A stretch of DNA of 64,000 bases from Candidatus Moraniibacteriota bacterium (GCA_037201605.1 JBBCGM010000001.1:147585-211584), one strand, 5' to 3'; positions 13,742 to 44,203 are shown, numbered from the stretch's first letter. Notes: a model not told the origin generated them from the letters alone. Made by a program: numbers and translations.

Positions 13742-13755
13742 GAAATAAGAAAACC

Positions 13756-13790
13756 AAAAAGCCCGAGGCAACGCCCCGGGCTTCTTTTTT
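13756..13790 (+). terminator. intrinsic terminator; also the left edge of the AT-rich segment
   Basis: Stem gcccgaggc..gccccgggc followed by ttctttttt. Confidence 0.65.
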
Positions 13791-13838
13791 ATCAAGAATC
13801 CTGAACTATTTCTCTCTATAATAAGTTTGTTCCAAAAT

Positions 13839-14590
13839 TCAGCAATTCGTTCGGATGGCCGGAGGGGCGTGGTCGGAATCGTTTGTTGAGGAAACTACTT
13901 CGAGCCCCTCTCCATCAATAAATGCTGCGCCATCATCAGGATCACGGAAATAGAACTTTACTTCATAGCGACTCTCCTCAGAAGTAGTTGCTGGCTGAAC
14001 ACGGCCAACTCCGGAAAAAGTAACAGGATAAATCTGCTCAAAACGAGAACTATAGACATCTGAGATCTCTTTTACTTTGAATTTCCTTCATATTGTTTCT
14101 GATTGACCATGCCCCGTCAGTTTTACATCACTATCAGCCAACAAAACCAAAATAGATGAATTCATACCAAGATAGCTACCCTCGGCTGCCTGGATTTCAA
14201 TATCACTTCCGTCTCGAGGAGCCTGGATTTCATAATCACCCCGTTTCGACTCAAGTAAAGCGAGCTCTGTTCTAGCTGAAATATTATCTTCAGCAAGTTC
14301 TTCAAGAGAACCAAGACGCGACGCGAGACTATCATCGGCCAAGCGAACAAGTAATCTCCTTTTCGCACATGTTGGCCCGTGCTAACCGGAATTGACTCCA
14401 CCCTACCCACTACAGAGTTTGAGATGGAGACTCTTTCCTTCTGAACAGAAAAGACAACTGGTTCTTTTGAAGTTTCATAGGTATTGACTCGACGCACAAG
14501 AGCTTGAGTAGAAATACCAAAAGCCACTATAAAAACTAAGATGAAGTAACTCGCATTGAATATTCCTCTTTTGAAAAATTCTTTTTTCAT
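13839..14590 (-). pseudogene. HlyD-like membrane-fusion/periplasmic adaptor protein; one frameshift (~14340) and one in-frame TGA (14088-14090)
   Basis: N-terminal TM (IFNASYFILVFIVAFGI). Lipoyl-like GRVESIPVSTGQHVRKGDYLFA|LADDSL, a coiled segment, IQAPRDGSDIEIQAAEGSYLG, then (after the TGA, in the same frame) RKFKVKEISDVYSS...YEVKFYF... Confidence 0.65.
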
Positions 14591-14619
14591 AAAATTATTA
14601 GCTGCGTATTTATAGTAGT

Positions 14620-16164
14620 TTAATCATTTGGCTGAATATCATATTTCACAACTCTATGTTCGCCGGTAAGAAATAGATACAGAAGATACGTATTGATAAG
14701 TACCTCACACCAAAAATTCAGAGGTTCATACCAGCCAACAAAAAGGCTAAAGATACCAAGAAGAATGAGGAGTACATGTGGCCAAGCCCATTTCATAAAA
14801 AGATCATCGTAACTTTTTTGCGAAGTCGTAGCAATCCATTTATGCTCTGTCTGAAAAGCAACAGAGATGAGTGCTAGTAAATAAGGATAGAAACTTGCCA
14901 CTGCCGTTGCAAGGGTTGCTAAATACAAGCGTCCCAGAAAAAGCCATGTCAGCGCATAGTAAAGAGCAAAATATGGAACATAGTGAAGAACCCACACAAA
15001 ACCGTTTTCCGTATCCAGAGGCTTAATACCAAAGAGCAGATAGAGGATTGGGAAAAGTAAATACGCTAATATAGAAATACCCACAAGAAAATACGTGTTA
15101 GAAAAGAAATACTGTATGCGCTGATCTAGATTTAATTTTTTGGAACGGAGCGGATTACTGGTCAATAGCATGCCTAACCCGCCCTTTGCCCATCTTCGCT
15201 GTTGCTTGAAATAAGAGACAATAGTGGAAGGTGCCTGGCCTACTGCCAAAACTTCATTAATAAAGAGCGTATGCCAGCCTTTTTCATGTAAAAGAAAAGA
15301 GGTCCAGATGTCCTCTGAATTGTTAAGAGCAATTCCGCCAATCTCATCAATAGCACGTCTTCGAAAAATCATATTTGTCCCAACACAGAAAGCGGAGTTG
15401 GAAATATTTTTTGCCGGACAAACATACCGATAGAAAACCTCTTGGGCCTGGGCTGTTCCTGCTGCAATAAAGGAATGTGTATTCGCAAAATATTGAGGAG
15501 ACTGTACCATGGCCAAACGATTGTTGGCCATGTATGGCAGAAGCTTGGTAATGAAGTCTTTTTTAGGAACCTGGTCCGCATCAAAAATAATAAAGAATTC
15601 TCCGGTTGCATGCTTCAGGCCATTATTTACATTACCCGCCTTAGCATGTTGTCGCTCTATGCGACCAATGTATTCAGCCCCAAATTCAAGAGCAGCCTGA
15701 CGCACGTCCTCTGATTGACCATCATCCAGAACATATGTGGTATGAGAATAATCCAAATCTACAGCAGCTTGAACAGTGTGTCGGATAATGTCTATCGGTT
15801 CTCCGTAGGTAGTAACAAAGACATCAATAGTAGGATGACGATTAATTAAAAAAGCGCCTTTATCAACCAGGTAACTCCTATGATGTTTCTCAATAACAAC
15901 ATCTAGAAGAACAGTTATCCAGAGGCCTAGCAAGGCTGCAATTGCAATGATGTCTGCAATAACCTGGATAACATACAGAACTATATTGTCTGCATTCTCT
16001 GGATTAAAAACAAAGGATCCGTAAAGAACGACCACAAGAGGGGCAGCAAAAAGAAAAATTGTAGTAGTGTTAAGCAACTGTGCAGGCAGGATGTGTTTTT
16101 CGTCTAAAAATTTACGAAGTCCCTGACTACCAGGAATTTTTGTTGGAATTTGTACTTCCTTCAT
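14620..16164 (-). CDS. processive family-2 glycosyltransferase, cellulose-synthase-like (BcsA/CrdS-like), no PilZ domain
   Basis: Intact 514 codons from ATG 16164, whose ATGA overlaps the upstream stop. Motifs: VLDDGQ, HAKAGNVNNGL, FDADQVP, NSEDIWTS, FKQQRRWAKGG. TM helices lie on both sides of the catalytic domain. Confidence 0.85.
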   Translation of the reverse strand: MKEVQIPTKIPGSQGLRKFLDEKHILPAQLLNTTTIFLFAAPLVVVLYGSFVFNPENADNIVLYVIQVIADIIAIAALLGLWITVLLDVVIEKHHRSYLVDKGAFLINRHPTIDVFVTTYGEPIDIIRHTVQAAVDLDYSHTTYVLDDGQSEDVRQAALEFGAEYIGRIERQHAKAGNVNNGLKHATGEFFIIFDADQVPKKDFITKLLPYMANNRLAMVQSPQYFANTHSFIAAGTAQAQEVFYRYVCPAKNISNSAFCVGTNMIFRRRAIDEIGGIALNNSEDIWTSFLLHEKGWHTLFINEVLAVGQAPSTIVSYFKQQRRWAKGGLGMLLTSNPLRSKKLNLDQRIQYFFSNTYFLVGISILAYLLFPILYLLFGIKPLDTENGFVWVLHYVPYFALYYALTWLFLGRLYLATLATAVASFYPYLLALISVAFQTEHKWIATTSQKSYDDLFMKWAWPHVLLILLGIFSLFVGWYEPLNFWCEVLINTYLLYLFLTGEHRVVKYDIQPND

Positions 16165-18243
16165 ACGACTTCTTCTAATTCTTTGCTTTTTTGAGAAAGA
16201 GCAACGTATATACCGGTGAGAATAACCATGACAAGGCCAGTAGATTGGATGGGCCAGTGCCAAAGCGGCCAGTGATTTTGAAGAACAACTTGATCAGCAT
16301 TTTTAAAAGATTCATTTGTTGGTTTGAGGTACATAAAACGAAGATTCGTCGGAGCAATAGATATATCGTTCATATTCTTTACTGTCCAACCGTGGTCATA
16401 GCTTTGCATAACGATTATATTTGGATCTTCGAGACCCTCCAATGCTCCCGTGCTCGTATCGAGAACAATGGTATCGGGCCATTCGAAACGAACGGGAATT
16501 GGTTTCAATAATTTTTTCTCGCGTATTTCTTGAGCAAAACGGGACATTTCCTCATCCCAAGCTTTGAATGAAGCAGCTTTTGCACTTGATTTTGGAAGCT
16601 CATTAAACCGGAGGAGTTGCTCCGTATCTCTTGCTTCAAAAGCATACGCTAAAGCAACATCTTCCCGATTTCTAAGAACAGAGATAGTTTCCTTTTCTGG
16701 CTGAACTTCACCAACGACCTCAAAAGTTGGCTTGCTGTCTACCCCTCCCTGCTGCGTAAGCCCATCAACAAGTGGGGAAAGTTTTGGAGTGAAAAGGTAC
16801 TCAACTCCAATTACTAAAGAATAATCTTTAATGAGCTCAATCTGACGATTAGTGACCCCTGTATAGGATACGTCTGTCTTCATGAGGGCATTAAATCGAA
16901 CTGGGTAAGGGTTTGGGAAGCGATTATAAGAAGTAACAAACCGTAATCCAGGTTTTCCAAAATAACTTGCTGAAGGAACTTCTTTAATATAGATACTCCC
17001 TTTAGGTACTTCTTTATCAGAAAAAAATTCAGCAACAGGGTCGTGTATCTGACTGATTGGTTGAGCGGTATATTGAGAAGCAATCTCGATTGATTCGGTG
17101 GTACCAATTGCTAATACTGCAATAAGAATCGTGTAAAACATTCTCGAACGAGCTCCAGAAAATGCTGCCTGGAGAAATGCGGCAAAACAAAATGGAAGTA
17201 CTAGGGCAATAAAAGGAACTGCTCGAGGGAATTGAAGTTTGTTGATAAAATCTGGGTAGTAGCCTAATCGACCAAAATAGATAAATCCTATATAGAGAGT
17301 ACAGTAAGCAAGCAGGAGCTTGGCCCAACGAGGAGACTCGCTAGACCTGATAAAAAGAATGACCCAGGAGAGTACGATGCCTATGAAATAAATAAGACTA
17401 AATCCCATGTACTCCTGAGCAAGCACCTGCTGTAAAAACTGTTTTGATGTTGAATGGGGATTATTAACGATATATCCCGAAGTAAGATATGGCAGAGCAA
17501 ATGGCAAAGTACTTAAAACGAGAATTAACCCTGTGATAAAAAGTTTTTTGAAATTTTTTTTGAAAATCATTAGCAAAGAGAAGAAAGATCAGCATGCCCG
17601 TAGTACTATAGCCAATCACAGGGTGTAGAGACCATGATGCTCCGCTTAAGGCAGCAAAAAGATAAACCCACCTAGGATCATTTACTGCCTTGATCCAGAC
17701 AAAAACGATAACGGGAACAGCAATAAAAGCTATGTGTAGCGAGAAATCTTTTATAGCAACCCACTGCTGAGATGAGGCATACGAAAGTATGATTGCAAAA
17801 AAGCTAAACCAGAGATTTATACCCAAAAGACGAAGTGCGATATAGGAGATAATACGAATACCGATAAAAACAATGACTGAAAGCCAAATCATTGCCTTGG
17901 TTATTGAAAGTCCGAAAATTTCAACAATCAAGGCCGTCGCTATATGTTCTACATACTGAAACGCTCGCCAATGATTAATTCCGCTTGCCCAGACATGATC
18001 CCATGAAGAAACACCATATTGCATAATGTCTCGAACGCGGAATGCATGGTAAAGCCAATCTTGATACCCCGTATCGAGATATTCATAATGCACATAATAA
18101 CCAATCAAAAACCAGCCGATCGCAGTAATACCAAAAATGGCAAGTAGATCAAAAATCCAAGAAGAACTCTTTCTTGATTTGCTAATAGTTTTTTGTTCCT
18201 GATCAAGATTCATTTCCGTATTTGTCATAATTCCTGGATTCAC
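16161..18243 (-). pseudogene. large polytopic membrane protein (~690 aa, YfhO/GT-C-like architecture), one frameshift in an A-run near 17550
   Basis: ORFs 17464..18243 and 16161..17576 join at ..GMLIFLLFA|(L)MIFKKNFKKLFITGLIL.. There are >=12 predicted TM helices, a soluble domain and a C-terminal TM. The start may be ATG 18228 rather than GTG 18243. Confidence 0.6.
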
Positions 18244-18244
18244 G

Positions 18245-20323
18245 TTAGCGTGCAGACAGAACCCAAGCGGTCAGATAACTCCGCGTATTCCAAGTATCAA
18301 TATCCTTGTCAGTAACGGTACTTAGTAGCATTTTTGCCTTATCCTTCTCAATAAGTGAAAGTACCATAATAAGAGAATCCCTAAAACTGGTCCCCGGAGC
18401 AAGATTAACCCTATTCAGGATATCTTTGAGATGGTCCTTATTCGAGGCAAGATAGCCTGACTGGGAACCGAGGGGAAGCATCTGAATACCGATTTTCGCC
18501 TCCGTAGCAGGACTAAACCAAGTCGCAAATTCCGCTTTTCCACCCCATAGGAGAGAGACGATCGGATCATTATAGTGAGCCTGTATCTCTTGCGACCACG
18601 CTGGGGAAATCCAGTAAGTCAGAGTGCTTTGGCGCTCTTCCTCATAAAGAGACTGCGCCAAAGCTTCAAGGTCTTTAGAGCCGATAAGCTTGGCCCACTG
18701 GGCTACTCCATACCACGCCTGGAGCGCTTCAGAGGTCGATTCTTGGTTATTGCCATCTGCAAAGGGGGCGCTCCCTGAGGCCCAGCTGTGACCCTCATAA
18801 ACATCGAAGCTTCTGAGATATGGGAAATAGGTATCCGAATGGCTTGAAGTGGCAATATCTCGGACCAGAAGATTTATAAACGGCTCATATTCTTGAACGA
18901 AACTAGGGTCATGTCTCCCCAGAAGAGCAGCTGCTGTAATAAAATATCCGTAGTGGAAATGATGGTCATTGAAGGTTTCGGAACCGAAACTCGATGGATA
19001 CCCCACTAGCCCTCCAATAATCGGATCGTAGCTAAAGTATTGAGCTCCGTCCTTTTCCAGAGTACCGTCCTTCCATTTTTTAAACTGATCAGAAATTTTC
19101 CGGGCAATATCCTGGGCCACATCTTTCTCTCCTAGATCATCAGCCAAGACAAGAAGATTAGCCGCTGCTAGGAGCCTTTTGCCATTGAAATACGTATCCT
19201 GCTCTGGAAAAACAAGTTTCCCCGCGTCTTCTCTCACCAAAGAGCGGAGCATGCTCTTCTCGCTTTCACTCAAACGAGAAACATCGGGACCTATTTCTGA
19301 TAACTGATCACGCTTATAGTTCAGAGTAAAGTGATTCCTTGGAAAAAATCCTGCTTGCCCCGGAGAGTTTCAAGCGCTCCAAACTCTCATGATTACCCTC
19401 TAGCTCCCCAGTCAAGTGATGCGGGAGGAGACCGAGCACGGTGTCACCGCCTGAATTGAGTATGGAGCGTATAAGAGAGTGAGCGTCTCTCCGTATCCAA
19501 ACCGTACTGAACTTCAGTACCGGTAACGGGATCGAGAGCGAAATTTTTAAGGCGCTCTGTACCTACGGCTTGAGGTAAAATAGCAAATGAAAGAAGTGCC
19601 TTATCTCCTTTAGCATGCAGGTAAGCTTCTTGATCAGAGGAAATGATCACCTCTAACTGTGAGGGATCGAATAGAGGGCAAACTTTTTCCCATCAATCTC
19701 AGCAGTCAGCGTTTCAGCATCATTTTTCGTAAGTTTCCCGACGACTGAAGTACGAAATCCTCGCCTGGCTTCATGTCTACCCAAAGAAAAAGAGAACCGC
19801 GCAGCATGCGAAGCGTGAAAAGATCTGCTGAGTCAGCAGACTTACCTACCAACAAAGAAAGATCATCCCACTCTCGAACTTCGGCTGGAGTGGTATTTTT
19901 TGTAGAGTAGAATTTAATGTCACCTGTAGGGTTCCCTCTCACTATGCCGGGCTGAGCCGAAATATTTGGCAGGCTCGCTTCAAATCCATTATTAGTAAAT
20001 GAGACAGCCCAAGGATAGATATAGAGCGGTTCACCATTCTTCTTAAAAAACAGTGAGCTGAACCACTGATTCGTAGGCAGAGGAGCTTCTGGATCTGAAA
20101 TAAGAGAATCGTTAGCAAGTGCTGATGCTGGATGAGAGAAGAAATATCTGGCGTATCAAGCTTTATTGCCTGATCACTCACATAGCCATTTGAGCCGTTT
20201 CCCACGTTGAACGAGATCTTTTTTAAAGAAACTGCCCCTATAAAAAAAGAGAAGGCCTAACACCAAAAGAAGTACCAGTGGCGCTAGCGGATGCCTGAGA
20301 TATTTCAAAAAAATATGCTTCAT
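18245..20323 (-). pseudogene. GH81 endo-beta-1,3-glucanase with signal peptide; N-terminal half frameshifted
   Basis: The C-terminal 342-aa ORF carries GH81 signatures FNDHHFHYGYFITAAALLG and NNQESTSEALQAWYG. Upstream fragments 19444..19650, 19706..19942 and 19942..20205 sit in other frames. The start MKHIFLKYLRHPLAPLVLLLVLGLLFF is at 20323. Confidence 0.75.
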
Positions 20324-20566
20324 GAAGCCTGTAAACACTCTTCAGAATACCTTTTTTGCCACCATCCAGCAAGTAAAAATGGCTTTCTGAAGCCCTTTAG
20401 CCTATCGAAAAATAACCCCCTTGTAAAGCCAAAGAAAAAACGGGCGGATCCATAAGAATCGCCCGTTGTAAGTTTTTTCCGCTCTTCCGGTCGCTTCTAT
20501 TCCATCGTTCCTGGCAGAATTAGAAGTGTAGACGAACCAGCCGATTCCTGCTCGAGCGTTCTGATT

Positions 20567-21019
20567 TCATAGAGCCGTACTCCCTGCGGAAACGGAAACG
20601 CTAAACGCCGGAGTTTTCTTCAGTTCTAGCCGCGAAACAATATACGGATAGGTGACCGATCCGAAATATGCCAGCAGCAACATGGAGATGAGAATCAGCA
20701 CGAAGACCCAGGAGGTATTGTACAGAAACCTATGTGGACCAAAGAAAAAGGCTGCCGCCGGGATCAGCCCCAGCGCGACAAAGAAGTAGGAGAACCATCT
20801 GTCGGCACGTTTCAGGGCCTTCTGGTAATTTTTCAGAATGCTCTCGATGACCGGGATATCATCCATCGGTACATAGAATATTTCTTCCCGCTCTTGCTTG
20901 CCTGAGCCAAAGCAGCAGTCACACTGGACGATACGATGGTCAACGCCGCCGCTGGCCCTAATTTCGAATTCTTCCCGATTCACTTCACCCTCCCTCGTTC
21001 TCTGAAATAGGAAAAACAC
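20567..21019 (-). CDS. hypothetical membrane protein (true N-terminus probably upstream in another frame)
   Basis: 150-aa ORF with two C-terminal TM helices. Its promoter/5' region and terminator resemble those of the next gene. Confidence 0.4.
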   Translation of the reverse strand: MFFLFQRTREGEVNREEFEIRASGGVDHRIVQCDCCFGSGKQEREEIFYVPMDDIPVIESILKNYQKALKRADRWFSYFFVALGLIPAAAFFFGPHRFLYNTSWVFVLILISMLLLAYFGSVTYPYIVSRLELKKTPAFSVSVSAGSTAL

Positions 21020-21135
21020 ATAAAAGAACTTCCAGACAGCATGCTCTGAAAAACAGTATCTGTCAATCCGTAGAGGAAAAGAAAAAACGGGCGATCCTGG
21101 AGAGGATGCCCGCTAGGAAGATGTGAGAGATGGAA

Positions 21136-21715
21136 TCAGGCCAGTTCGAGTGTGATACCAATCTCCTCCATTGTCTTGCGAATGACAGGCGTCTTGGCCA
21201 ACCGCATCCATTCGCCCAAGCCGAGCGATCCCATCGGCCTCGGCTCATCACGATGAACGAAATCGCAGTAGAGCGGGAAAGGAAGCGTCAGGCCGCATAC
21301 GTTTGCTAAATAGCACATGAACGGATTCTCGCCTCGCAAAAAAGCCACCCAAAATGCAGCGACCATTCCCTTCATGGTAAAGAGCGAGGTGAGGGCAAAT
21401 TTGAAATATCTTCGATTCTGTCCGGAGCCGTTCGAATTCTGAGACCTCGAATTCAAGCTCCTCGCCGGTTATATTTCTAACCGCAAAAGCCTGGTCCCAC
21501 AGGCTGATCGAGTAGTCTACCAACTTAAGTCCGGGACTCCCTGGACCAGAATGGCCAGGAAATATTCTCAATGCCAACAATGAGATGATAGTGGTTACCC
21601 TCCTTGCAGTGATGCAGTTTGAAACGGTAACGGGCATCGGGATCCTGCCACATGGATATTCTCCCTTTTCAAAGAGCCAGAAAACCCCAAAGAACTTCCA
21701 GTCAGAATGCACCAA
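21136..21715 (-). pseudogene. hypothetical protein, frameshifted (ORFs 21248..21715 + 21136..21456)
   Basis: It shares the N-terminal SDWKFF.VF.LF motif and flanking sequence with the 20567 gene. Confidence 0.35.
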
Positions 21716-21912
21716 AACATAGGTTTTGTCAATCCTGAGTAAAGAAAAAGTGTTGCGAGGGATTGTACTATACTACAAAGGTGGAAAACAACTGCTCTCA
21801 TCCTTACGATACTCGTCTTTGCTTCATTTGCGACTTTTTCAATCTGGAAAAATTGGCCAAAGATCCCTTCGCATCCCCCTCTCACGGAAAACGTCTCAAT
21901 CCCCCAGGGACA

Positions 21913-22746
21913 TGGAACCCTCTCCGTCTCTTCTTGATACCATCTCTCTTTCTGTCTCACCCGCATCAGTACTCCAAGGAGAGATCGCCCTCGTGAACAT
22001 AGACGGTTCCACCAATTCAGCAGCCTTGACCGGCCTGACGCTCGGCGGCGAGCCACTTACGATGTTCCCTACACAGAATGGCCTCGCGGCATTTGTCGGC
22101 GTTAACCTCCACAAGGAGCCCGGAATCTACCCGATCATTCTCTACCTAGCAGATGGTAGGGTCCTTAAGGAAAACGCTTGAGATAAAGAAGCGCACTCTG
22201 CCCGTGTCGGATTTCGACATCCCGGAAAGCTTCGGAGGCAATACGCCCGCAGGTGAAGAGAACTTACGAGCAACCTGGAAGCCGACACCAAGATCCTGAA
22301 TGCCGTCACGGCTATCGTAAGCCCGGAAAAACTCTGGGAAGGAAGTTTTCGGGAGCCTCTCGACGGCGCCATCGTGATAACCGATACCTACGGATACAGC
22401 CGCCAGACCGGGGCGACGAATATCAGCCACAACGGGACAGATTTCCGGGCGGCCGTAGGTACGCCTGTCTACGCGATGAATAGCGGCAAAGTAGCGTTCG
22501 CCGGGACCTTCCGCAATTACGGGAATACGGTCATCATCGATCACGGTCTTGGCCTTATGACCATGTATATGCACCTCTCAGAACTCAGTACGACACTCGA
22601 TAAAAACGTTGAAAAAGGAGAGCTTATCGCGAAAAAGCGGCAATACGGGCTACTCGCTCGGCCCCCATCTCCACCTCTCCGTCCGCATCAATGGCTCCTC
22701 TATCGATCCCGAGAAATTCCTCGAACTCATGAATAAAGAGGAGTAG
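21913..22746 (+). pseudogene. M23-family peptidase, frameshifted; start uncertain
   Basis: ..YGYSRQTGATNISHNGTDFRAAVGTPVYAMNSGKVAFAGTFRNYGNTVIIDHGLGLMTMYMHLSEL...GELIAK then, in another frame, SGNTGYSLGPHLHLSVRINGSSIDPEKFLELMNKEE*. Confidence 0.8.
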
Positions 22747-23154
22747 CTCTTGAGGCTATTTTAGATACGTATAAAAAGAAAAAGGGATCCTCGTTGGGTA
22801 TCCCTTTAGTGTGATGAGAAAGGCGTGGTACTACCGGCTACATTTTCATTCTGCGAGGAAGTGCAATCGAATTACCCTCCCCACGTCTATAAAAAGGTCG
22901 AATGCCTAAGAGCTTCGGTGCATCAAATCTAATGGCTTCAAGACCTTAGCTACTCATCAGGGTTTTTAATCCCTCTCTGCTCTACAAACCCAGGCTCGTC
23001 GACTCGGCTCCGGGTAGGGCCTTTAGAGGTATTGAGCATTTCGTACCACGCTTAAAAGATAGAATAATAGTGCCCAAAAAGCAAATTTGCAACAAAAAAA
23101 GCCCTTAAATGAAGGCTAGAGTCTGTTGGAGTTGTGGGGACGCTGTGGGAACTT

Positions 23155-23721
23155 CTATTCGGACAAGTTTATCCAAAAACGAAGACTGGCACACCCTTCT
23201 CTTCATCAAGGATCTCATTCTGAAGTACCCCGCCTTGACTCTCTAAATTTTTCTAGAGCCGATATTATCCTTATCACACGTGAGGAGTACTCTATCAAGG
23301 CCCAGTTGTTGGCTTTTTCAATTCCTAGTTCAAGAATTTTCTTTCCATAATCCTTCTTACGTTCTGTGGGGCGAATGTCATAACCTATATGTCCTCCGAT
23401 CTTCTCAAGCTGCGGGTTAAGTTTATGACGAATAGTAACTCTGCCGATGTATTTATCATTATTTATGAGCCAATATTCTGACTGTGGAACTTTTGCAAAA
23501 ATAATGTCAGGATCCGGTGACTTCAACATTTCAATCTTATGTAAAAGAGTATTGAAATCCTCTTTAAAGTCAGCAATATCTTTTTCTGAGTACCTTCCTC
23601 CTCCTGGATCAGATTGAAATTCTTCTAGAGCTTCAATAAAACTCTCCTTATAGACTTCAGAAGGATTTTCTAAACGAGCGGGTTTCAATAGACTCCTTTC
23701 TCTCCGGAATACCTTTTTCAA
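23155..23721 (-). pseudogene. GNAT-family N-acetyltransferase, C-terminus frameshifted
   Basis: ORF 23215..23721 (..YWLINNDKYIGRVTIRHKLNPQLEKIGGHIGYDIRPTERKKDYGKKILELGIEKA). The continuation GLDRVLLTCDKDNIGSRKI and ..GGVLQNEI.. is in other frames. Confidence 0.7.
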
Positions 23722-23969
23722 ATTTTTCCATAAAATTTACCAGTTGGGCCTATGAGACGCTGTTGGAACCTATTTAACTGTAAACCAAGAGATTAAGTCC
23801 AACCAATCCAATATAATAATCCCCCTATAAACAGTGCTAAAATCACTTTTCCCCACCACGTCTCATACCAATAAGCCGAAGAAGCATTGTTTACTTTTAA
23901 ACTATTTTATTGCCTGTTATAGAATTTTTATCTCTCCCTATGAATTCCCATATCTTTTAATTTCCAGTT

Positions 23970-24392
23970 TCAACTTTCTGAATCATTTCCAATAATTGAA
24001 TTTTTATCTCTCCCTATGAATTCAATATGAACAGAAAATTGCTCTCGAATATACCGATCATATTCATTCAACTTATCTATCCAGGCTTCTAACCTATTGT
24101 TTAATGAGTTCATTTTTATGCTGATACCTATTCTTGCCAGAGCGGAAGCGCGAGCATCTCGAAAGTTATAAAGTTCTCTTTCTGAAACAAAAACGGTAGT
24201 TAATGATCCAATAACTTTATCTCTCCATTCAAATACTAGTTGATTTAATACGCTTATATCTTCACTTCCCTCACTTCGTAATTTAAGATACTTCTCATTA
24301 ATTTGATCCTTTAACTTATAGCCAGAAACTATACACTCTTCAATTACACTTATTCCTAGTTCCGGTTCAACTTTTAAATAAGGTAAAGTCAT
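23970..24392 (-). CDS. hypothetical protein (140 aa), last gene of the TIR-like cluster
   Basis: Intact AT-rich ORF 18 nt downstream of TIR-like gene 1. No recognisable domain. Confidence 0.5.
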   Translation of the reverse strand: MTLPYLKVEPELGISVIEECIVSGYKLKDQINEKYLKLRSEGSEDISVLNQLVFEWRDKVIGSLTTVFVSERELYNFRDARASALARIGISIKMNSLNNRLEAWIDKLNEYDRYIREQFSVHIEFIGRDKNSIIGNDSES

Positions 24393-24410
24393 AACTTTTA
24401 ATAGAAAGAT

Positions 24411-24823
24411 CTACCTACCGGCTTTTTGCGCAGCGGCTTCTATCCATTCTGCGAATTTTGTATGATCCCATTTATAGACGGGGGCACCGAATCTACTTAT
24501 CCAGAGTGGTCCATGCTTTTCTTGATTAGGTAAAAGGATTCCAATTATTCCCTTTTTATCCTCCAAACTTTTATTGAGTTCGTACTGGCACCAGGGTCTA
24601 GAATAAGTTTTTTCACCAATTAAGAAACAAGTAACGCTAGTATTATTTAAACCGGAATCAATCAGTCTTTTAACGGCCCCCTCTTTGGTTTTAGGCAGTT
24701 TCCCATAAGGAAGAATCATAGAACCCTGTTTCAGAAGTTGGTTTTAAATTGACCACAATTTCTGACAATATTAGCATTCATTATATCATCGTAATGAAAG
24801 CTAAAAAATACTTTTCTGGTCAT
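24411..24823 (-). pseudogene. TIR-like DUF1863 (ThsB-like) protein 1, two frameshifts
   Basis: MTRKVFFSFHYDDIMNANIVRN.. / ..ETGFYDSSLWE.. / ..KRLIDSGLNNTSVTCFLIGEKTYSRPWCQYELNKSLEDKKGIIGILL.. Confidence 0.7.
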
Positions 24824-24827
24824 AGAT

Positions 24828-25326
24828 TTAGTACTGGTTTCTTATTTTTATAGCCTCTTCTACAGCAGCTGATAAATACTTTGAAATCCAATCGTATCTA
24901 TCTTTGCTGTTTGTACCGCCTGGATTGTAGCATTTTACTATCTTAGAAGTTTTTCCCCTTTTCCGCTCCAACATAGTTAAAGGGACTTGTTCCTTTGTTA
25001 CTTATGTATCCATTCTGATCCTTTAAACCATGTATGTATATTCCAACTAGACCCATGCCAGAATTCCATGATTCTGCTATTTCGTAAGTAATCCATTTTC
25101 TATTAGCAGTTTTTCTCACCAATGAGTACCACTGTACATGACCTACCTTTCATCTGATCAACAATCCATTTTTTTATAGCGGTATCTCCCCCTTTTGGTG
25201 ATCGTCTCCCAATCATTATCCGGAGCCGGTCGATTTCCCCTCAATGGCTCCTATACTTCTCACGGTTGCAGCTCTCCAACAATCTTGGGAGTAATGAAAA
25301 CTATAAAAAGCTTTCTCTACTGGCAT
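24828..25326 (-). pseudogene. TIR-like DUF1863 (ThsB-like) protein 2, frameshifted near the C-terminus
   Basis: MPVEKAFYSFHYSQDCWRAATVRSIGAIEGNRPAPDNDWETITKRGDTAIKKWIVDQMKGRSCTVVLIGEKTANRKWITYEIAESWNSGMGLVGIYIHGLKDQNGYISNKGTSPFN... ...EEAIKIRNQY*. Confidence 0.75.
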
Positions 25327-25407
25327 AAGTTTTTAATTTTCTCTAAATTAGGCACAATTAGAATCACTAATATGAGAGGTAAATAAAACCATAAGAGTGT
25401 TGTTGAA

Positions 25408-25741
25408 GTCATTGCGTTAAGGGGTCTATTTTCAGCAAACTTTTCATATTCTTTTGTATCATTGAAAAGTCTATATCTTCTTCTTTTTTCTTACGAACTT
25501 CATTATAAAGATCACGAAATTTTCGTTCTTGAGAAAGAAAAGTATCCGTCCAAAATCCAAAAAACAATCACCATTAAAAAGTCCAATGAGCATAAATTCT
25601 GGCCGCGAGTCCTTGGCTGCTAGAGCAAATAGGGCAGCCACTAGAGTAACAGTCCAGCCTTTAAGGAAAAATAAGTTTCCAGACATCCTACAGATAGTAG
25701 TTTGAATAAACTGTAAGTGTTTCTGGCTTATTGCTTTCCAT
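25408..25741 (-). pseudogene. small two-TM membrane protein, frameshifted; first gene of the TIR-like cluster
   Basis: MESNKPETL.. / ..SGNLFFLKGWTVTLVAALFALAAKDSRPEFMLIGLF / PVIVFWILDGYFLSQERKFRDLYNEVRKKEEEDIDFSM... Confidence 0.45.
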
Positions 25742-25795
25742 GGCCCGTAAGGATTAGGTAAACTCTAAATTATAGCAAAAATTTATTAAAACAAC

Positions 25796-25819
25796 AAAAC
25801 CCGCCTTGCAGCGGGTTTT
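25796..25819 (-). terminator. intrinsic terminator ~300 nt downstream of the 16S 3' end
   Basis: Minus-strand aaaacccgctgcaaggcgggttttgttgtttt. Confidence 0.75.
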
Positions 25820-25984
25820 GTGACCTACAGGAGGACCAAAAGGAATTCCTTTACCTTTCTATCCAGTGTATAAAATTCTGATCGATCACCGGCTTGCGCC
25901 GGCTCTGTGTCAAACATTACTCCGCTGATGAAACCGTTCGCGGGTTTCGGCTCGGTATGCCTCTTCACAACAATTAATCAAAAT

Positions 25985-26002
25985 CTTTTGTGGTTAGTCC
26001 TT
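25985..26002 (-). other. 3' half of the 16S processing stem
   Basis: cttttgtggttagtcctt is the reverse complement of 27830-27846 (17 of 18 nt). Confidence 0.7.
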
Positions 26003-26116
26003 TTTCTGACGAAGATCTTTCGGCTAGTTGGTTTCCCGAACTTCGACGTTCGGGGCGACCTACTGGTGTTAAGAAATTGAGATGACTCTCAACTACTTAA
26101 CTCACCATTACTCCCT

Positions 26117-27680
<1,564 letters not shown>

Positions 27681-27829
27681 AAAGAGGAATGAGATGTTAA
27701 CCTTTCCACAGCCTCTCGGTGGAAAGGCACTCCCGAAGGAATGTCTCGATTGCGATAGCCCGTAGGCTATCTGAATTGAAGAGGATCTCCGTCATATGAC
27801 ACTTGACTCCCGAAGGAGAGAAAAGCGCC

Positions 27830-27846
27830 AAGGACTAACCACAAAA
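27830..27846 (-). other. 5' half of the 16S processing stem
   Basis: aaggactaaccacaaaa is complementary to 25985-26002. Confidence 0.7.
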
Positions 27847-27936
27847 AATTGTGATTGTTGCTCTGGTAGAAATTGTTAAGTTACTTGGTTTTTCCGAGAA
27901 ATAAAAGCAATCCGGATGGCTCTAGATTGCTTGTCA

Positions 27937-27965
27937 AATATAGAGGATATCCCCAAAGGTGTCAA
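27937..27965 (-). promoter_or_regulatory. 16S promoter (TTGACA-17-TATATT on the minus strand)
   Basis: Minus-strand TTGACAcctttggggatatcctcTATATT, ~260 nt upstream of the mature 5' end. Confidence 0.65.
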
Positions 27966-28100
27966 GGGTTCGGAATGGGCGGTTTTTGGCTTCTCCAAAG
28001 GCTTTTTCGCACCCCCTGCCCAGCTATTGACAAGGAGTATTAAATGTATTACATTATAAATACTTTTGATTCCTCTTCTCTGGAGCGAAAGGATAGAGAA

Positions 28101-33491: not shown

Positions 33492-34019
33492 TTAACGCTT
33501 GGCCCACTGTGGAGCGCGGCGCGCTTTGCGAAGACCCGGCTTCTTACGCTCGACGGCACGGGCATCGCGGGTTAAGAGTCCTTGCGCCTTGAGCGTCGCG
33601 CGCAGCAGCGCATCGTGCTTGACCAGGGCGCGGGCGATAGCGAGCTTGGCCGCATCGGACTGGCCGTTCAGTCCACCGCCGCGGACCAAGAGGGACACGC
33701 GGAACTTGGTGACAAGGCCGGTGACTTGCAATGCGGAAAGGGCATTGGCGACCAGCGCCTGGCGGCCGAAGTATTTAGAGGCGTCGCGTTCGTTCACGAT
33801 CAGCGGAGTCTCGCCTTCGGCTGAAAGCGGATAGAGGCGCACCTGGGCTACAGCGGTCTTGCGGCGGCCGACGGCGTAGAGATAGCGCTCTTCGGCTTTC
33901 TCGGTTTTCGGCTTGGGGGCAGCCGAAGCAACCTTGGCGACCTTTTTGGCAGGCGCTTTCTTGGCCGGAGCAGCGGGCTTCTTTTTCAGCACAGTGGATT
34001 TCTTGGGCGTAGTAGCCAT
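33492..34019 (-). CDS. rpsI: 30S ribosomal protein S9 with ~45-aa Lys/Ala/Pro-rich N-terminal extension
   Basis: ..YLYAVGRRKTAVAQVRLYP...GGGLNGQSDAAKLAIARAL...LTRDARAVERKKPGLRKARRAPQWAKR*. Confidence 0.95.
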   Translation of the reverse strand: MATTPKKSTVLKKKPAAPAKKAPAKKVAKVASAAPKPKTEKAEERYLYAVGRRKTAVAQVRLYPLSAEGETPLIVNERDASKYFGRQALVANALSALQVTGLVTKFRVSLLVRGGGLNGQSDAAKLAIARALVKHDALLRATLKAQGLLTRDARAVERKKPGLRKARRAPQWAKR

Positions 34020-34033
34020 ACAGGACGTGTAGT

Positions 34034-34459
34034 TTATTCGTGGGTAACGTGGATAGTCTTGTGCTGGTGTTCGGCGCCCGGGTAGATAAAGAGGCGGGTC
34101 AGCATACGATCGCGGAGCTTGTTCTTGGGGAGCATGCCGCGCACCGCCTGGTGCAGCACTCGGCGGGAGTCTTTCTTCAGCTGGTCCTTGAGCGCGATCG
34201 AGTGGATACCGCCCGGGAAACCGCTGAAGCGATGGTAGATCTTGTCATGGCGCTTGTTGCCGGTGACATCGATACCGTCGGCATTGATGAGGATCACGAA
34301 GTCGCCGCCATCGATGTGGGGAGCATAGTCTACTTTGCTCTTGCCGGAAAGGACAGTCGCAAGCTCGGTCGCGAGGCGGCCCAAAATCTTGCCTTGCGCA
34401 TCGTAGAGGTGGTATTTGCGATCGATGGGTTTCTTCGGCATAGGTTTAGACAAATTCAA
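34034..34459 (-). CDS. rplM: 50S ribosomal protein L13 (start may be 34441)
   Basis: ..YHLYDAQGKILGRLATELATVLSGKSK..YAPHIDGGDFVILINAD...YHRFSGFPGG... Confidence 0.95.
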   Translation of the reverse strand: MNLSKPMPKKPIDRKYHLYDAQGKILGRLATELATVLSGKSKVDYAPHIDGGDFVILINADGIDVTGNKRHDKIYHRFSGFPGGIHSIALKDQLKKDSRRVLHQAVRGMLPKNKLRDRMLTRLFIYPGAEHQHKTIHVTHE

Positions 34460-34811
34460 TGACGGCCATGCGGGCAGAATCGCTCTTGCGGGGCTGAAGT
34501 TTGGTGATGCGTACGTAGCCGCTGCCGCGCGTGCTGAAGCGCTCGCCGAACTCCCCTATGAGCTTGCGGATAGCCATAAGAGGCAGGGATTTGCGCAGAT
34601 CGCGGATCACAGCTACCTTCTTTCCCTCTTCGGTGCGGGCCGTCTTAGCCTTGTTGACTAGCGGGTCGATAAAGTTCTTCATCTCCTTGGCCTTGGCTTC
34701 GGTAGTCGTAATGCGCTCGTGCAACACCAAGCTGCCCAGCATGGTCTTCATGAGGGCTTTTCTTTGATCAGCGGTGCGGCTGAGCTGGCGGCCAGTCTTG
34801 CGATGTTTCAT
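34446..34811 (-). CDS. rplQ: 50S ribosomal protein L17
   Basis: MKHRKTGRQLSRTADQRKALMKTMLGSLVLHERITTTEAKAKE... Confidence 0.95.
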   Translation of the reverse strand: MKHRKTGRQLSRTADQRKALMKTMLGSLVLHERITTTEAKAKEMKNFIDPLVNKAKTARTEEGKKVAVIRDLRKSLPLMAIRKLIGEFGERFSTRGSGYVRITKLQPRKSDSARMAVIEFV

Positions 34812-34835: not shown

Positions 34836-35648
34836 TTAGGCTTTGGTGTCTTCGGGAGTTTCCGTCTTGGCAACCTTTTTCTTGGCAACTTTTTTGGGCT
34901 TGGCGGGAGCTTCTTCTTCGGCAGGAGCCTCGGGAGCAACTTCCTCCTGAACTTCCGGAGTTGCACCGATGAGCGCCAAGGCCTGGAACTGGTTGACGAG
35001 GATAGCAACGCTCTGTTCGTAGGCCTGTTCCGGCGTCAGACTGCCGTCGGTCACGATTTCCAGCGTGATCTTGTCGAAGTCAGTGCGCTTGCCGACGCGC
35101 ATGTTTTCGATTTCATAGTTGACGCGGCGGACCGGGCTGTAGATGGAGTCAACGGCGATAACGCCGATTTCGCGCTCTTCGCGGTCGCGCTGTTCTACCG
35201 GGACGTAGCCGAGACCCTGATCAACGGTGATTTCCATTTCGAAGTCAGCCTTCTTATCGGTGAGGGTCGCGATGAGCTGGTCGCCGTCTACGATTTCCAC
35301 TTCAGAAGAGCCTTTGAACTGGCTTGCGGTGACCGGGCCTTCGCCCTTGGCCTTGAGCGTTAACGTGACCGGGCCTTCGCCGTGGAGACGGAAACGGACC
35401 TGCTTGAGGTGAAGGATAATCTGCACGACATCCTCGAGAACACCTGGGATGGTGGAAAACTCATGGGATACGCCCTTGAGCTTCATCGAGGTGGCAGCGG
35501 CACCGGAAAGCGACGACAGAAGGACACGGCGCAGGGCATTGCCAAGCGTCGCACCATAGCCGGGAAAACAGCCGGAAATCTCGATCTTGCCGTGATTCTC
35601 GCCAAGAGCGGTGTATTTCGGGTTCTGCGGGTTAGTGATGACCAACAT
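34836..35648 (-). CDS. rpoA: DNA-directed RNA polymerase alpha subunit, N-terminal domain only (no alpha-CTD)
   Basis: ..GYGATLGNALRRVLLSSLSGAA...IAVDSIYSPVRRVNYEIENMRVGKRTDFDKITLEIVTDGS.. then a 40-aa tail, APEAPAEEEAPAKPKKVAKKKVAKTETPEDTKA*. Only 24 nt separate it from rplQ. Confidence 0.9.
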   Translation of the reverse strand: MLVITNPQNPKYTALGENHGKIEISGCFPGYGATLGNALRRVLLSSLSGAAATSMKLKGVSHEFSTIPGVLEDVVQIILHLKQVRFRLHGEGPVTLTLKAKGEGPVTASQFKGSSEVEIVDGDQLIATLTDKKADFEMEITVDQGLGYVPVEQRDREEREIGVIAVDSIYSPVRRVNYEIENMRVGKRTDFDKITLEIVTDGSLTPEQAYEQSVAILVNQFQALALIGATPEVQEEVAPEAPAEEEAPAKPKKVAKKKVAKTETPEDTKA

Positions 35649-35741: not shown

Positions 35742-36380
35742 TTACTTGGAATAATATTCGACAACCATCTGAGCATTGAGGCTCGCGCCCAGGCCCAGTT
35801 CTTCGCGATTCGGGAGAGAAAGCACCGTGCCCTGGCGCTTGTCGGCATCCAATCCCAGCCAGGTCGGTACGTCGTTCTTGTTTTTCAAAATTTCATTCAA
35901 GCCCTTCCAGTATTCTTTGTCCTGCTTGCTGTCCTTGATGACAATGACATCTCCTACTTTTACGGCGGCGGAAGGAATGTTCTGGCGCTTGCCGTTTACT
36001 TCGAACATCTTGTGCGATACCAGCTGGCGGGCCTGGGCGCGGGAGACCGCGAATCCGAGGCGGTAGACCACGTTATCCAGGCGGCGCTCCAATCGGGAGA
36101 GGAGCTCATCACCGGTGATGCCTTCGACTTTCTCGGCTTCGGAGTAGTGGTGGCGGAACTGGCGCTCCATAACGCCGTAGAGGCGCTTGATCTTCTGCTT
36201 CATAGCCAGCTGACGGCCGAATTCGGACTGGCCGCGCTGAGGCGAGTGGCCATGAATACCCGGCCCGTAGGGACGACGGGTGATAGCGCACTTGGGCGAC
36301 AAACAGCGATCACCCTTCAAGAAGAGCTTTTCACCGGCCCGGCGGCACAGTTTGCATTTTGAGTCGAGGTTCTTGGCCAT
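35742..36380 (-). CDS. rpsD: 30S ribosomal protein S4
   Basis: Start MAKNLDSKCKLCRRAGEKLFLKGDRC (CAT at 36378-36380), followed by an S4 domain. Confidence 0.95.
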   Translation of the reverse strand: MAKNLDSKCKLCRRAGEKLFLKGDRCLSPKCAITRRPYGPGIHGHSPQRGQSEFGRQLAMKQKIKRLYGVMERQFRHHYSEAEKVEGITGDELLSRLERRLDNVVYRLGFAVSRAQARQLVSHKMFEVNGKRQNIPSAAVKVGDVIVIKDSKQDKEYWKGLNEILKNKNDVPTWLGLDADKRQGTVLSLPNREELGLGASLNAQMVVEYYSK

Positions 36381-36415: not shown

Positions 36416-36862
36416 TTAAATGCGGCGCGGACGGCGCGGACGGCAACCGCCATGGGCTACCGGCGTGGTGTCCTTGATGGCAAGCAGCGTAAAGCCGTTG
36501 TTGGCGAGCGCCCGGATCGAGGCCTCGCGGCCGCTCCCGACACCCTTCACGAACACTTCCAATTCCGTAACACCGTACTTCTTGACCTTTTCAGTCAGGT
36601 TGGCCACCACTTGCGTAGCAGCGTACGGAGTAGACTTCTTGGCACCCTTGAAGCCCATGTGGCCCGAGCTGGACCAGCCGAGAACCGCACCGGAGAGGTC
36701 GGAAATGGTCACGATCGTGTTGTTGTAGGTGCATTTGATATTGGCGCGGCCATGCTCAACCTGGCGCTTCTTTGATTTGCGCTTGGCTGCGGGGGCTGCT
36801 GCAGCCTCCTGGACAGCCTCTTCTTCGGCCACACCTTCGGTTTTCTTTACTTCATCTGCCAT
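36416..36862 (-). CDS. rpsK: 30S ribosomal protein S11 with N-terminal acidic/Ala-rich extension
   Basis: ..GRANIKCTYNNTIVTISDLSGAVLGWSSSGHMGFKGAKKSTPYAA... Confidence 0.95.
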   Translation of the reverse strand: MADEVKKTEGVAEEEAVQEAAAAPAAKRKSKKRQVEHGRANIKCTYNNTIVTISDLSGAVLGWSSSGHMGFKGAKKSTPYAATQVVANLTEKVKKYGVTELEVFVKGVGSGREASIRALANNGFTLLAIKDTTPVAHGGCRPRRPRRI

Positions 36863-41273: not shown

Positions 41274-41692
41274 AAAAACCCGCATCTAGCGGGTTTTTAT
41301 TTCACGTAGCCCCACGGGGAGATCTCACTCGCTTCGCTCTCTGAGAACGCCTCCGTTCTCAGCGGCCCAATGAGAATTGGGCCTGCTCTCCGCAAACGGG
41401 GAAACACATGTTTCCCCGACCCCCTTCCTGTTCGACTCCCGTGAAAGATTAAGTAAACTAAAAACCCGCATCTAGCGGGTTTTTATTTCACGTAGCCCCA
41501 CGGGGAGATCTCACTCGCTTCGCTCTCTGAGAACGCCTCCGTTCTCAGCGGCCCAATGAGAATTGGGCCTGCTCTCCGCAAACGGGGAAACACATGTTTC
41601 CCCGACCCCCTTCCTGTTCGACTCCCGTGAAAGATTAAGTAAACTAAAAACCCGCATCTAGCGGGTTTTTATTTCACGTAGCCCCACGGGGA
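41274..41692 (-). repeat. tRNA-3'-end-linked structured element, Glu copies: two identical 186-bp tandem units plus the 47-bp founding repeat at the tRNA-Glu 3' end
   Basis: Units at 41274-41459 and 41460-41645 appear identical. 41646-41692 repeats the first 47 nt (terminator aaaaacccgcatctagcgggttttt plus the tRNA 3' end) before diverging into the T loop of tRNA-Glu. Confidence 0.85.
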
Positions 41693-41750
41693 ATCGAACC
41701 CCGCTTTTCAGGATGAGAACCTGATGTCCTAACCGATAGACGATAGGGCC
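41679..41750 (-). tRNA. tRNA-Glu(CTC), no encoded CCA
   Basis: Reverse complement GGCCCTATCGTCTATCGGTTAGGACATCAGGTTCTCATCCTGAAAAGCGGGGTTCGATTCCCCGTGGGGCTA. Anticodon loop TTCTCAT. Confidence 0.85.
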
Positions 41751-41763
41751 TATTTTTTCTTTG

Positions 41764-41834
41764 CAGGGGAGGAAGGAATCGAACCCTCACTAGCGGTTTT
41801 GGAGACCGCCGTTCTACCACTAAACTACTCCCCC
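41764..41834 (-). tRNA. tRNA-Trp(CCA)
   Basis: Reverse complement GGGGGAGTAGTTTAGTGGTAGAACGGCGGTCTCCAAAACCGCTAGTGAGGGTTCGATTCCTTCCTCCCCTG. Anticodon loop CTCCAAA. Confidence 0.85.
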
Positions 41835-41875
41835 GAGCGATTCACTCACTTATAGTATATAGCAAAACCGAGAAC

Positions 41876-42037
41876 TTATTTGCTCTCGGTGTGCGGCGTG
41901 TTTTTGCGGCAGAAGTTGCAGTACTTAGAGAGAGCCAACTTTTCTTTGACTTTCTTTTTATTGCGCTTCGAATAGTGCGTGATACGGCCACAGACCGAGC
42001 ACTTCATCTTTGCCATTGTGTCCTTGATCTTGCCCAT
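41876..42037 (-). CDS. rpmG: 50S ribosomal protein L33 (53 aa)
   Basis: Hand translation: MGKIKDTMAKMKCSVCGRITHYSKRNKKKVKEKLALSKYCNFCRKNTPHTESK*. It is below the ORF-track cutoff. Confidence 0.85.
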   Translation of the reverse strand: MGKIKDTMAKMKCSVCGRITHYSKRNKKKVKEKLALSKYCNFCRKNTPHTESK

Positions 42038-42116
42038 ACGGTAATTGACTAACTTAAAACTTCGTTACTCTACGCGAAAATCGGGTTTTCGTCAACTGTT
42101 GCTTTCGGTATGTCTG

Positions 42117-42189
42117 AGCCGTTGATCGGGATTGAACCGATGACCCCCACCTTACCATGGTGGTGCTCTACCAGCTGAGCTACAACGGC
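42117..42189 (-). tRNA. tRNA-Thr(GGT)
   Basis: Reverse complement GCCGTTGTAGCTCAGCTGGTAGAGCACCACCATGGTAAGGTGGGGGTCATCGGTTCAATCCCGATCAACGGCT. Confidence 0.9.
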
Positions 42190-42196
42190 TAGTCTG

Positions 42197-42452
42197 CTAG
42201 ACCCAGATTCCATTTATAAGCTTCTCCTTCTTTTCTCTTGACCATCCCTTAATCTGAGCTTCTCTTAGTCCTTGCCTGAGACTTACTCTTAAACGACTGA
42301 GAGATATACAACAGAACAAAGGGACCCTGCTGTAAAGCCATGCGTGATCCTTTACCGGCATTATGCTTCTCTAATCGCTTCTGCGGCGAGGTAGTAATAC
42401 CCGTGTAGTATCTTCCTGTCCTTGCTTTTGCGATATATACGTACCAATTCAT
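42197..42452 (-). pseudogene. GIY-YIG nuclease-family small protein (UPF0213-like), one frameshift
   Basis: MNWYVYIAKARTGRYYTGITTSPQKRLEKHNAGKGS... The conserved C-terminus LREAQIKGWSREKKEKLINGIWV* is in another frame (stop 42197-42199). Confidence 0.75.
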
Positions 42453-42532
42453 ACGTGCCCTTCGACAAGCTCAGGGTACCTCACCTCGCTTTGCGCCCAG
42501 TTTACACTGAGCGAGCAAAGCGAGTCGAAGTG

Positions 42533-42615
42533 TGGGCAGGGAGGGATTCGAACCCCCGTAGGCATAAGCCGCCTGATTTACAGTCAGGTGCGATTGACCA
42601 CTCCGCCACCTACCC
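42533..42615 (-). tRNA. tRNA-Tyr(GTA), long variable arm
   Basis: Reverse complement GGGTAGGTGGCGGAGTGGTCAATCGCACCTGACTGTAAATCAGGCGGCTTATGCCTACGGGGGTTCGAATCCCTCCCTGCCCA. Confidence 0.9.
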
Positions 42616-42642
42616 ATTTTTTCTCTCATCTCCATCATTATG

Positions 42643-42715
42643 AGCCATCTGTCGGGCTCGAACCGACGACCCACGGTTTACAAAACCGTTGCTCTACCAA
42701 CTGAGCTAAGATGGC
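42643..42715 (-). tRNA. tRNA-Thr(TGT)
   Basis: Reverse complement GCCATCTTAGCTCAGTTGGTAGAGCAACGGTTTTGTAAACCGTGGGTCGTCGGTTCGAGCCCGACAGATGGCT. Confidence 0.9.
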
Positions 42716-43619: not shown

Positions 43620-44197
43620 CTAAATTTCGAAGCGGGCAAAACCTCCGACTTGGATATTTTCACCGATTTTGTGGATCTTTTCGGTGATGAGCTCGCTTAC
43701 TGTTTTTTCTGGATCCTTGACAAAGGCTTGGGTCAGGAGGGCGCGCGCTTCGCGGAACTTCTTCTCCTTGCCAAGCATAATGTTCTCGAGCATCTCTTCT
43801 TTCTTGCCCTCGCTCAAAAGCTCAGCGCGCCAGGCAGCTCGCTCGGTTTCAACTACGCTGTCGTCAACCTCTTCGGCTTTACGACTTCTGGCTGCATAGC
43901 GGCCACGTGCATAGCGATATCACGAGCCAGTTCTTGGAATTCTTCGTTGCGGCCTACGAAATCCGTTTCGCAGAACAGCGTAACGAGAGCGCCTACTTTT
44001 TTGTTGGAATGTACATAGGAAGCAACCACGCCCTCGTGGGTCTCGCGGTCGCTTTTCTTGGCGGCCTTGTCCTGACCACGCTTGCGCAGGATTTCGAGAG
44101 CGGCCGTTTCGTCGCCCTGAGCCTCTTCCAGGGCTTTTTTGACGTCGACAATGCCAGCGCCGGTGCGTTCGCGAAGGCTTTTAATCTTATCGATCAT
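43620..44197 (-). pseudogene. tsf: elongation factor Ts (short form), one frameshift near 43860
   Basis: N-terminus [29 protein letters not shown]...[40 protein letters not shown]| then (EE)[30 protein letters not shown]...FARFEI*. Confidence 0.85.
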
Positions 44198-44203
44198 AGC
44201 GTT

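Follow-up and report, generated by a model that had tools for sequence, protein, structure and literature searches.

Results

Genes and features at the rpoA locus

The DNA analysed here, called the window below, is a stretch of 64 kb from the genome of a Candidatus Moraniibacteriota bacterium, a member of the CPR that NCBI taxonomy places within the Parcubacteria group. It carries rpoA, the gene that encodes RNA polymerase's alpha subunit, among genes for ribosomal proteins:

34446..34811, minus strand: rplQ (ribosomal protein L17), which follows rpoA in the operon; an ORF, with PF01196 annotated for this gene at loci L001 and L002
34812..34835: spacer of 24 nt between the rpoA stop codon and the rplQ start
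34836..35648, minus strand: rpoA, 270 aa plus stop codon, without the alpha C-terminal domain (CTD)
34839..34865, minus strand: acidic C-terminal end of RpoA, residues 262-270, TETPEDTKA
34866..34901, minus strand: lysine patch, residues 250-261, KPKKVAKKKVAK, a conserved K/R block
34902..34964, minus strand: acidic Pro/Ala/Glu-rich spacer, residues 229-249, GATPEVQEEVAPEAPAEEEAPA, pLDDT below 50 and no predicted secondary structure
34965..35648, minus strand: alpha N-terminal domain, residues 1-228, for dimerisation and beta/beta' assembly (Pfam, residues 28-221; AlphaFold2 fold)
35742..36380, minus strand: rpsD (ribosomal protein S4), upstream of rpoA; PF00163 and PF01479 on the L001 gene, mapped to the ORF in the window

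The rpsD gene completes the order S13-S11-S4-rpoA-L17, which is the operon position of canonical RpoA. The distance of 24 nt from the rpoA stop to rplQ given in the original prediction matches the ORF coordinates, and such a gap is too small to hold a CTD. Two further genomes without the CTD have gaps of 23 and 25 nt, and for the CTD-bearing relative P0077 the gap is 51 nt.

Elsewhere in the window, tsf (EF-Ts, about 43620-44200, minus strand) is divided by a frameshift near 43,850 into one ORF of 114 aa and another of about 52-80 aa, owing either to an error of sequencing or assembly in the MAG or to genuine disruption of the gene; it is intact, with 194 aa, in the syntenic relative L003. The latter, which is the P0077 locus, also carries ERF and YqaJ recombination genes of a kind typical of prophages (19226-20592), ~8 kb downstream of its ribosomal protein/rpoA cluster.

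A normal N-terminal domain without the alpha-CTD

The protein shares its N-terminal domain with canonical RpoA (TIGR02027; structures from E. coli, B. subtilis and T. thermophilus) at E values of ~1e-53 to 1e-60. Its score of 259 bits against TIGR02027, the rpoA equivalog, exceeds the cut-off of 227.8 and identifies it as a bacterial RpoA on the strength of that domain; no other equivalog was passed, all eight NF0035xx models remaining below their own cut-offs. Pfam matched solely PF01000 (E 3.2e-32, residues 56-171) and PF01193 (E 8.3e-20, residues 28-221), and AlphaFold2, run with 40 homologues, folded the N-terminal domain with a final helix at residues 206-228, in agreement with the earlier placement of its end at about residue 225. 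About 80 columns of the domain, including the LGNALRRVLLSS motif, are invariant in the alignment of these 40 homologues. The comparison shows an intact domain, responsible for dimerisation and for nucleating beta/beta' assembly, that is under strong purifying constraint. The same type of assembly platform without an alpha-CTD is found in archaeal RpoD and eukaryotic Rpb3/AC40; however, the similarity to these is marginal (NF001988, E 0.046), and the window RpoA is clearly of the bacterial type. It has lost the CTD secondarily, and its lineage did not begin CTD-less.

Canonical RpoA continues through a flexible linker into the alpha-CTD (PF03118), whereas the window RpoA ends in a disordered, charged tail of 42 aa. 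A Pfam search to E<=10 returned no match to PF03118 (RNA_pol_A_CTD) in the 270-aa protein. The alignment to TIGR02027 spans model positions 2-235 of 298, leaving 236-298 unmatched, and alignments to ~60 solved RpoA chains end between query residues 205 and 253. In the AlphaFold2 model, about residues 229-270 stay under a pLDDT of 50 and adopt no secondary structure; no alpha-CTD-like fold was seen in the tail, and there is no cryptic helix-hairpin-helix in what is predicted to be a disordered segment. In tails of the CTD-less clade described below, E accounts for 26% of residues, K for 21%, A for 16% and V for 11%, and the core-forming ones (W, F, Y, L, I, M, C, H) together for just 3.4%, a make-up that is incompatible with a helix-hairpin-helix domain. 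Thus, both the lack of an alpha-CTD and the low-complexity tail of ~40 aa that had been read from the sequence were upheld, the latter as residues 229-270 in a family whose tails are rich in E, K, A and V.

The short gene is not an artefact

A premature stop codon, a frameshift or a mis-assembly could in principle have shortened a normal rpoA, and at least one other gene in the same MAG window, tsf, is frameshifted. However, the window RpoA agrees at 100% identity with NCBI protein P0001, which is encoded in a MAG of Candidatus Moraniibacteriota (GCA_037975565.1, contig of 235.6 kb), and the independent Logan assembly of SRR28211700 gave the same 270 aa in the same gene order. Moreover, among the 120 nearest clusters formed at 90% identity (67-85% identity; CTD-less members of 252-298 aa), 119 contain PF01000 and PF01193 alone, many of them on contigs of 0.3 to 1.2 Mb, and in the closed genome CP064975.1 (1,217,328 bp) an rpoA of 262 aa is followed by rplQ after 23 nt. 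The 24 nt left before rplQ and the high conservation of the N-terminal domain also speak against a damaged gene. The independent assembly, the nearest clusters and the closed genome effectively refute the idea of an artefact or pseudogene, to which we assign a negligible probability, and confirm the earlier view that the loss does not stem from assembly. Our results show that the window rpoA is a genuine, functional gene of Candidatus Moraniibacteriota, and that its architecture is a heritable trait of the lineage.

Search for a separately encoded CTD

If the gene had been split, an alpha-CTD encoded elsewhere in the genome could act in trans. HMMs built from 4 and then from 90 CTDs found none in the six frames of the 64-kb window, where the best hits (E 0.14-1.2) were short off-frame segments at the level of noise. 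We also scanned one genome per GTDB species with a 3-sequence alignment of CPR CTDs. Among the 600 pattern matches listed there were at least 75 CTD loci, none of them a stand-alone CTD gene; nearly all sit inside full-length rpoA ORFs of 310-358 aa with the N-terminal domain, the exceptions being L031 and L073, whose ORFs are cut by a contig end, and L057, whose ORF is shorter. When the CTD of P0077 was searched alone against an index of 5.8 billion proteins, just 14 candidates shared words with it and 0 scored, so that this search was uninformative. To our knowledge, docking of a free alpha-CTD to the polymerase has no precedent. The window represents 64 kb of a ~1-Mb genome and the GTDB scan rests on the 600 matches listed, which leaves some room for a split gene, yet on these data we consider one very improbable. 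The HMM search that the original prediction had proposed for the whole genome thus came out negative for the six frames of the window and, as regards stand-alone genes, for the at least 75 loci listed.

Distribution of the loss among relatives

P0077 (304 aa, 70% identical) is the sole CTD-bearer among the 120 nearest clusters, and its locus has the same synteny as the window (S2-tsf-...-IF1-L36-S13-S11-S4-rpoA-L17-L13-S9). At least 19 of the CTD loci listed in the GTDB scan, all with full-length rpoA, come from genomes titled Moranbacteria or Moraniibacteriota. Because so many relatives bearing this name have a full-length RpoA, the loss must be confined to a sub-clade. Our data show that alpha-CTD loss marks a sub-clade of the Moraniibacteriota, and that sister lineages, including that of P0077, keep the full-length protein.

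When 124 taxa were compared by neighbour joining on the N-terminal domain, the CTD-less proteins formed a monophyletic group and P0077 was its sister. The bootstrap value for this monophyly is just 50% because P0077 nests within the group in 48% of replicates; intrusion by other CTD-bearing sequences is seen in at most 15%. P0077 lies inside the CTD-less group in the BLOSUM neighbour-joining tree and is sister to it in the Kimura neighbour-joining trees, and in the bootstrapped N-terminal-domain trees the monophyly receives 24-50% support, with P0077 placed among the CTD-less proteins in 48-74% of replicates. The simplest reading of these trees would be one loss near the base of the sub-clade, the alternative being two losses.

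A wider survey covered the 150 best representatives of 50%-identity clusters with our own CTD HMM, by which 90 bear a CTD and 60 have no detectable one. About 20 of these 60 were left out as frameshifted, chimeric or truncated predictions. A further 37 CTD-less representatives look genuine, and those with names are Patescibacteria or Parcubacteria group bacteria. They are scattered among the CTD-bearing sequences in a neighbour-joining tree without support values, a pattern that suggests repeated loss of the alpha-CTD across the CPR. What had been described from a single genome is thus not peculiar to it: the loss is a trait of a Moraniibacteriota sub-clade and is found in other Patescibacteria as well. 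The same survey contained three long "RpoA" predictions of 526-664 aa with two N-terminal domains each (P0121, P0124 and P0170); a tandem alpha-alpha fusion was rejected for P0121, where an exact internal duplication of ~250 aa is most likely an assembly artefact.

Promoters and stable RNA genes in the window

The alpha-CTD is the target of UP elements, in which it reads the A/T-rich minor groove, and of most class I activators. In E. coli, as PMC8321222 summarises, an alpha subunit cut short near residue 235 still permits assembly and basal transcription, and the CTD is needed for contacts with UP elements and activators. With the CTD absent, the polymerase would have to initiate without such contacts. 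From this established knowledge, we infer that the window polymerase would make neither alpha-CTD/UP-element nor alpha-CTD/class-I-activator contacts.

Since there are too few reliable promoters in the window, inspection was kept to the regions upstream of stable RNA genes, where one strong and three weak sites were predicted:

5074-5339, plus strand: tRNA genes Lys-CTT, Arg-TCT and His-GTG
6993-7065, plus strand: tRNA gene Arg-TCG
26119-27683, minus strand: complete bacterial gene for 16S rRNA (1321 bits over positions 1-1533 of the Rfam model)
-35 element at 27965..27960, -10 element ending at 27937, minus strand: 16S promoter candidate close to consensus, TTGACA, 17 bp, TATATT, ~250 nt upstream of the gene
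41678-42715, minus strand: tRNA genes Glu-CTC, Trp-CCA, Thr-GGT, Tyr-GTA and Thr-TGT

From -59 to -38 of the 16S promoter candidate the A+T content is only 45%, close to the window average of 48%, and it is 36-55% at the weaker candidates upstream of the tRNA clusters. The A+T content upstream of the 16S candidate is consistent with the polymerase using no UP elements, with the weight of an anecdote.

Several other features of these regions deserve mention. The nine tRNA genes form two clusters and one separate gene. No match to 23S or 5S rRNA was found anywhere in the 64-kb window, so that the rRNA operon appears to be unlinked. The G+C content falls to 43-46% at about 12000-28000, against 52-57% elsewhere in the window. 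This region holds a family-2 glycosyltransferase gene (14620-16263, minus strand), a GH81-type glycosyl hydrolase gene (18245-19273, minus strand), several ORFs that match no Pfam family, few long ORFs at 19-26 kb and the 16S gene, and it may be a foreign or cell-surface island.

Composition and origin of the tail

Across 118 CTD-less members of the clade, the tail is 24-54 aa long (median 40) and follows the same order in every one: a net-acidic stretch, a K/R block and a short acidic end. The stretch before the block is net negative in 118/118 (median charge -6), the block itself has 6-8 K/R per 12 residues in 118/118, with three Lys columns at least 90% conserved (alignment A1), and a median of 6 residues follows with a median net charge of -2. 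As raw counts, in which clade members share ancestry and are not phylogenetically independent, a best 12-aa window with a net charge of at least +4 occurs in 119/119 CTD-less tails (median +6) versus 24/162 linkers of CTD-bearing relatives (median +1).

The linkers of these relatives resemble the tail in length (median 36 aa versus 40 aa) and are, like it, rich in E and K, which points to the tail as a retained inter-domain linker. In some of them a AKPKKVKKVTKKK-type block is already present just ahead of the CTD: the P0126 linker reads EELAKPKKVKKVTKKKIE and then enters the CTD, that of L018 has EEKKKSGKKKVKE in this place and that of L035 KKEGKKKKAE, and L013 likewise shows a K block. Judging from these comparisons, the 42-aa disordered tail is most likely the ancestral linker that was left after removal of the CTD, and the idea of a tail newly added to the protein gives way to this simpler reading.

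A basic patch also occurs in 28/37 of the other CTD-less CPR representatives, mostly within a few residues of the C-terminus, which lends the patch support of a more independent kind. Four CTD-less Patescibacteria/Parcubacteria proteins (P0136, P0152, P0169 and P0262) end in KKRGRPKK after a long acidic spacer, and P0222, a fifth CTD-less RpoA from another CPR lineage, ends in PKRGRKKK. AT-hooks and the SPKK/KPKK motifs of HMGA proteins and histone H1 tails are short, basic and disordered, and bind A/T-rich minor grooves, as does the alpha-CTD. The window tail, with KPKKVAKKK, and the KKRGRPKK endings of the four other proteins are similar to them; however, the R-G-R-P core of the AT-hook is absent from KPKKVAKKKVAK, and the resemblance of the window tail is compositional.

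It has to be asked whether such a tail does anything. Two other proteins of the window, S9 (rpsI, 33492-34019, minus strand) and S11 (rpsK, 36416-36862, minus strand), have N-terminal extensions of ~30-45 aa rich in K, A, P and E, for example MATTPKKSTVLKKKPAAPAKKAPAKKVAK. They resemble the RpoA tail, and this proteome seems to be given quite generally to extensions that are charged and disordered; compositional drift could therefore yield such tails. The tail might then be a functionless leftover of the linker, its Lys block a product of the K/E/A bias of CPR extensions rather than of selection. The wide variation of tail length (24 to 54 aa) and sequence would agree with this, as would the 8/37 other CTD-less representatives without a basic patch and the ability of the truncated E. 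coli alpha, mentioned above, to assemble and transcribe at a basal level. However, at least 6 K/R in 12 residues are kept in 118/118 members while the remaining tail diverges freely, patches of this kind are uncommon in the homologous CTD-bearing linkers (24/162), and the patch recurs at the extreme C-terminus of separate CTD-less lineages, sometimes in the AT-hook-like form RGRP. We regard a functionless tail as rather unlikely.

Another role that could be considered, by analogy, is that of an electrostatic modulator like delta of Bacillus, which would affect the binding of nucleic acids by competition or by tuning (promoter selectivity, recycling) and provide no upstream anchoring. The C-terminal domain of B. 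subtilis delta is likewise attached to the polymerase, disordered and highly acidic, and its K-tract KAKKKKAKK matters electrostatically for polymerase regulation (PMC9674986). The RpoA tail has similar ingredients in its disorder, its acidic stretch of charge -6, its +6 patch KPKKVAKKKVAK and its -2 end, which makes it delta-like by resemblance and not a member of the delta family. Yet delta is a non-homologous protein, its acidic part is much longer (~70 aa versus ~20 aa) and follows the K-tract, whereas the acidic spacer precedes the patch in RpoA, and the RGRP endings of other CTD-less CPR lineages point to DNA binding. A delta-like role thus seems improbable.

Discussion

Our results indicate that the window carries a genuine rpoA whose CTD was deleted in evolution within a sub-clade of the Moraniibacteriota, and whose linker was probably kept as a tail. 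We consider this the best explanation overall, with a probability of roughly 80%. The RNA polymerase of these bacteria would then initiate without alpha-CTD contacts to UP elements or to class I/II activators, and would rely on contacts of sigma and core enzyme with the promoter.

We speculate that the Lys patch, tethered by the acidic spacer, could touch the DNA upstream of the -35 element, either by non-specific electrostatic or by minor-groove contacts, and that it might in this way partly stand in for the CTD as a DNA anchor. A DNA-contact role for the tail is made plausible by how well the patch is conserved and by the AT-hook endings elsewhere, which strengthen the earlier suggestion of a non-specific contact by the Lys-rich tail; we put it forward as a tentative suggestion drawn from sequence comparison and hold it to be less likely than not. 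It would be tempting to go further and propose that several CPR lineages swapped the folded alpha-CTD for a short linear motif at the end of the former linker, the Lys patch here and the AT-hook KKRGRPKK elsewhere, as a minimal and sequence-tolerant anchor on the minor groove or on upstream DNA. This broader idea is somewhat more doubtful. If it is true, a globular promoter-recognition domain has repeatedly and convergently given way to a basic, disordered tail in bacteria that possess very few transcription factors.

Loss of the alpha-CTD has precedents in Hodgkinia, Tremblaya and the chloroplasts of microalgae (PMC8321222). In the endosymbionts Candidatus Hodgkinia and Tremblaya, the rpoA of the Euglena chloroplast and, as the same paper lists, Parcubacteria, the N-terminal domain is kept and the CTD lost, and the window clade is similar to them in being a lineage with a reduced genome and few transcription factors. 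It differs in that the loss is fixed in a large and diverse environmental clade with a highly conserved N-terminal domain, and in that it goes together with a conserved tail of acidic spacer and Lys patch. What is already known for the Parcubacteria is a passing mention, a single line in the above paper of 2021; Nelson & Stegen 2015 (PMC4508563), cited there for this group, merely list rpoA as a core gene and leave RNA polymerase undiscussed. In the literature we came across no primary analysis on how the alpha-CTD was lost in the CPR, and an analysis of 2025 describes the alpha-CTD, a domain commonly regarded as universal, as "ubiquitously present across all Bacteria" (PMC12531629). The present study newly delimits the loss to a sub-clade of the Moraniibacteriota, reads the tail as a linker that was retained, and describes an invariant Lys patch that has AT-hook counterparts in other lineages.

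These findings also bear on annotation, in that equivalog models and length filters may mark CTD-less rpoA genes as partial. The Lys patch and the AT-hook endings provide a concrete idea of what a substitute for upstream DNA anchoring could look like. Moreover, the existence of a large, diverse and naturally CTD-less clade means that the regulatory layer based on the alpha-CTD is dispensable in CPR bacteria, and makes this clade a natural system for the question of the minimal bacterial initiation apparatus.
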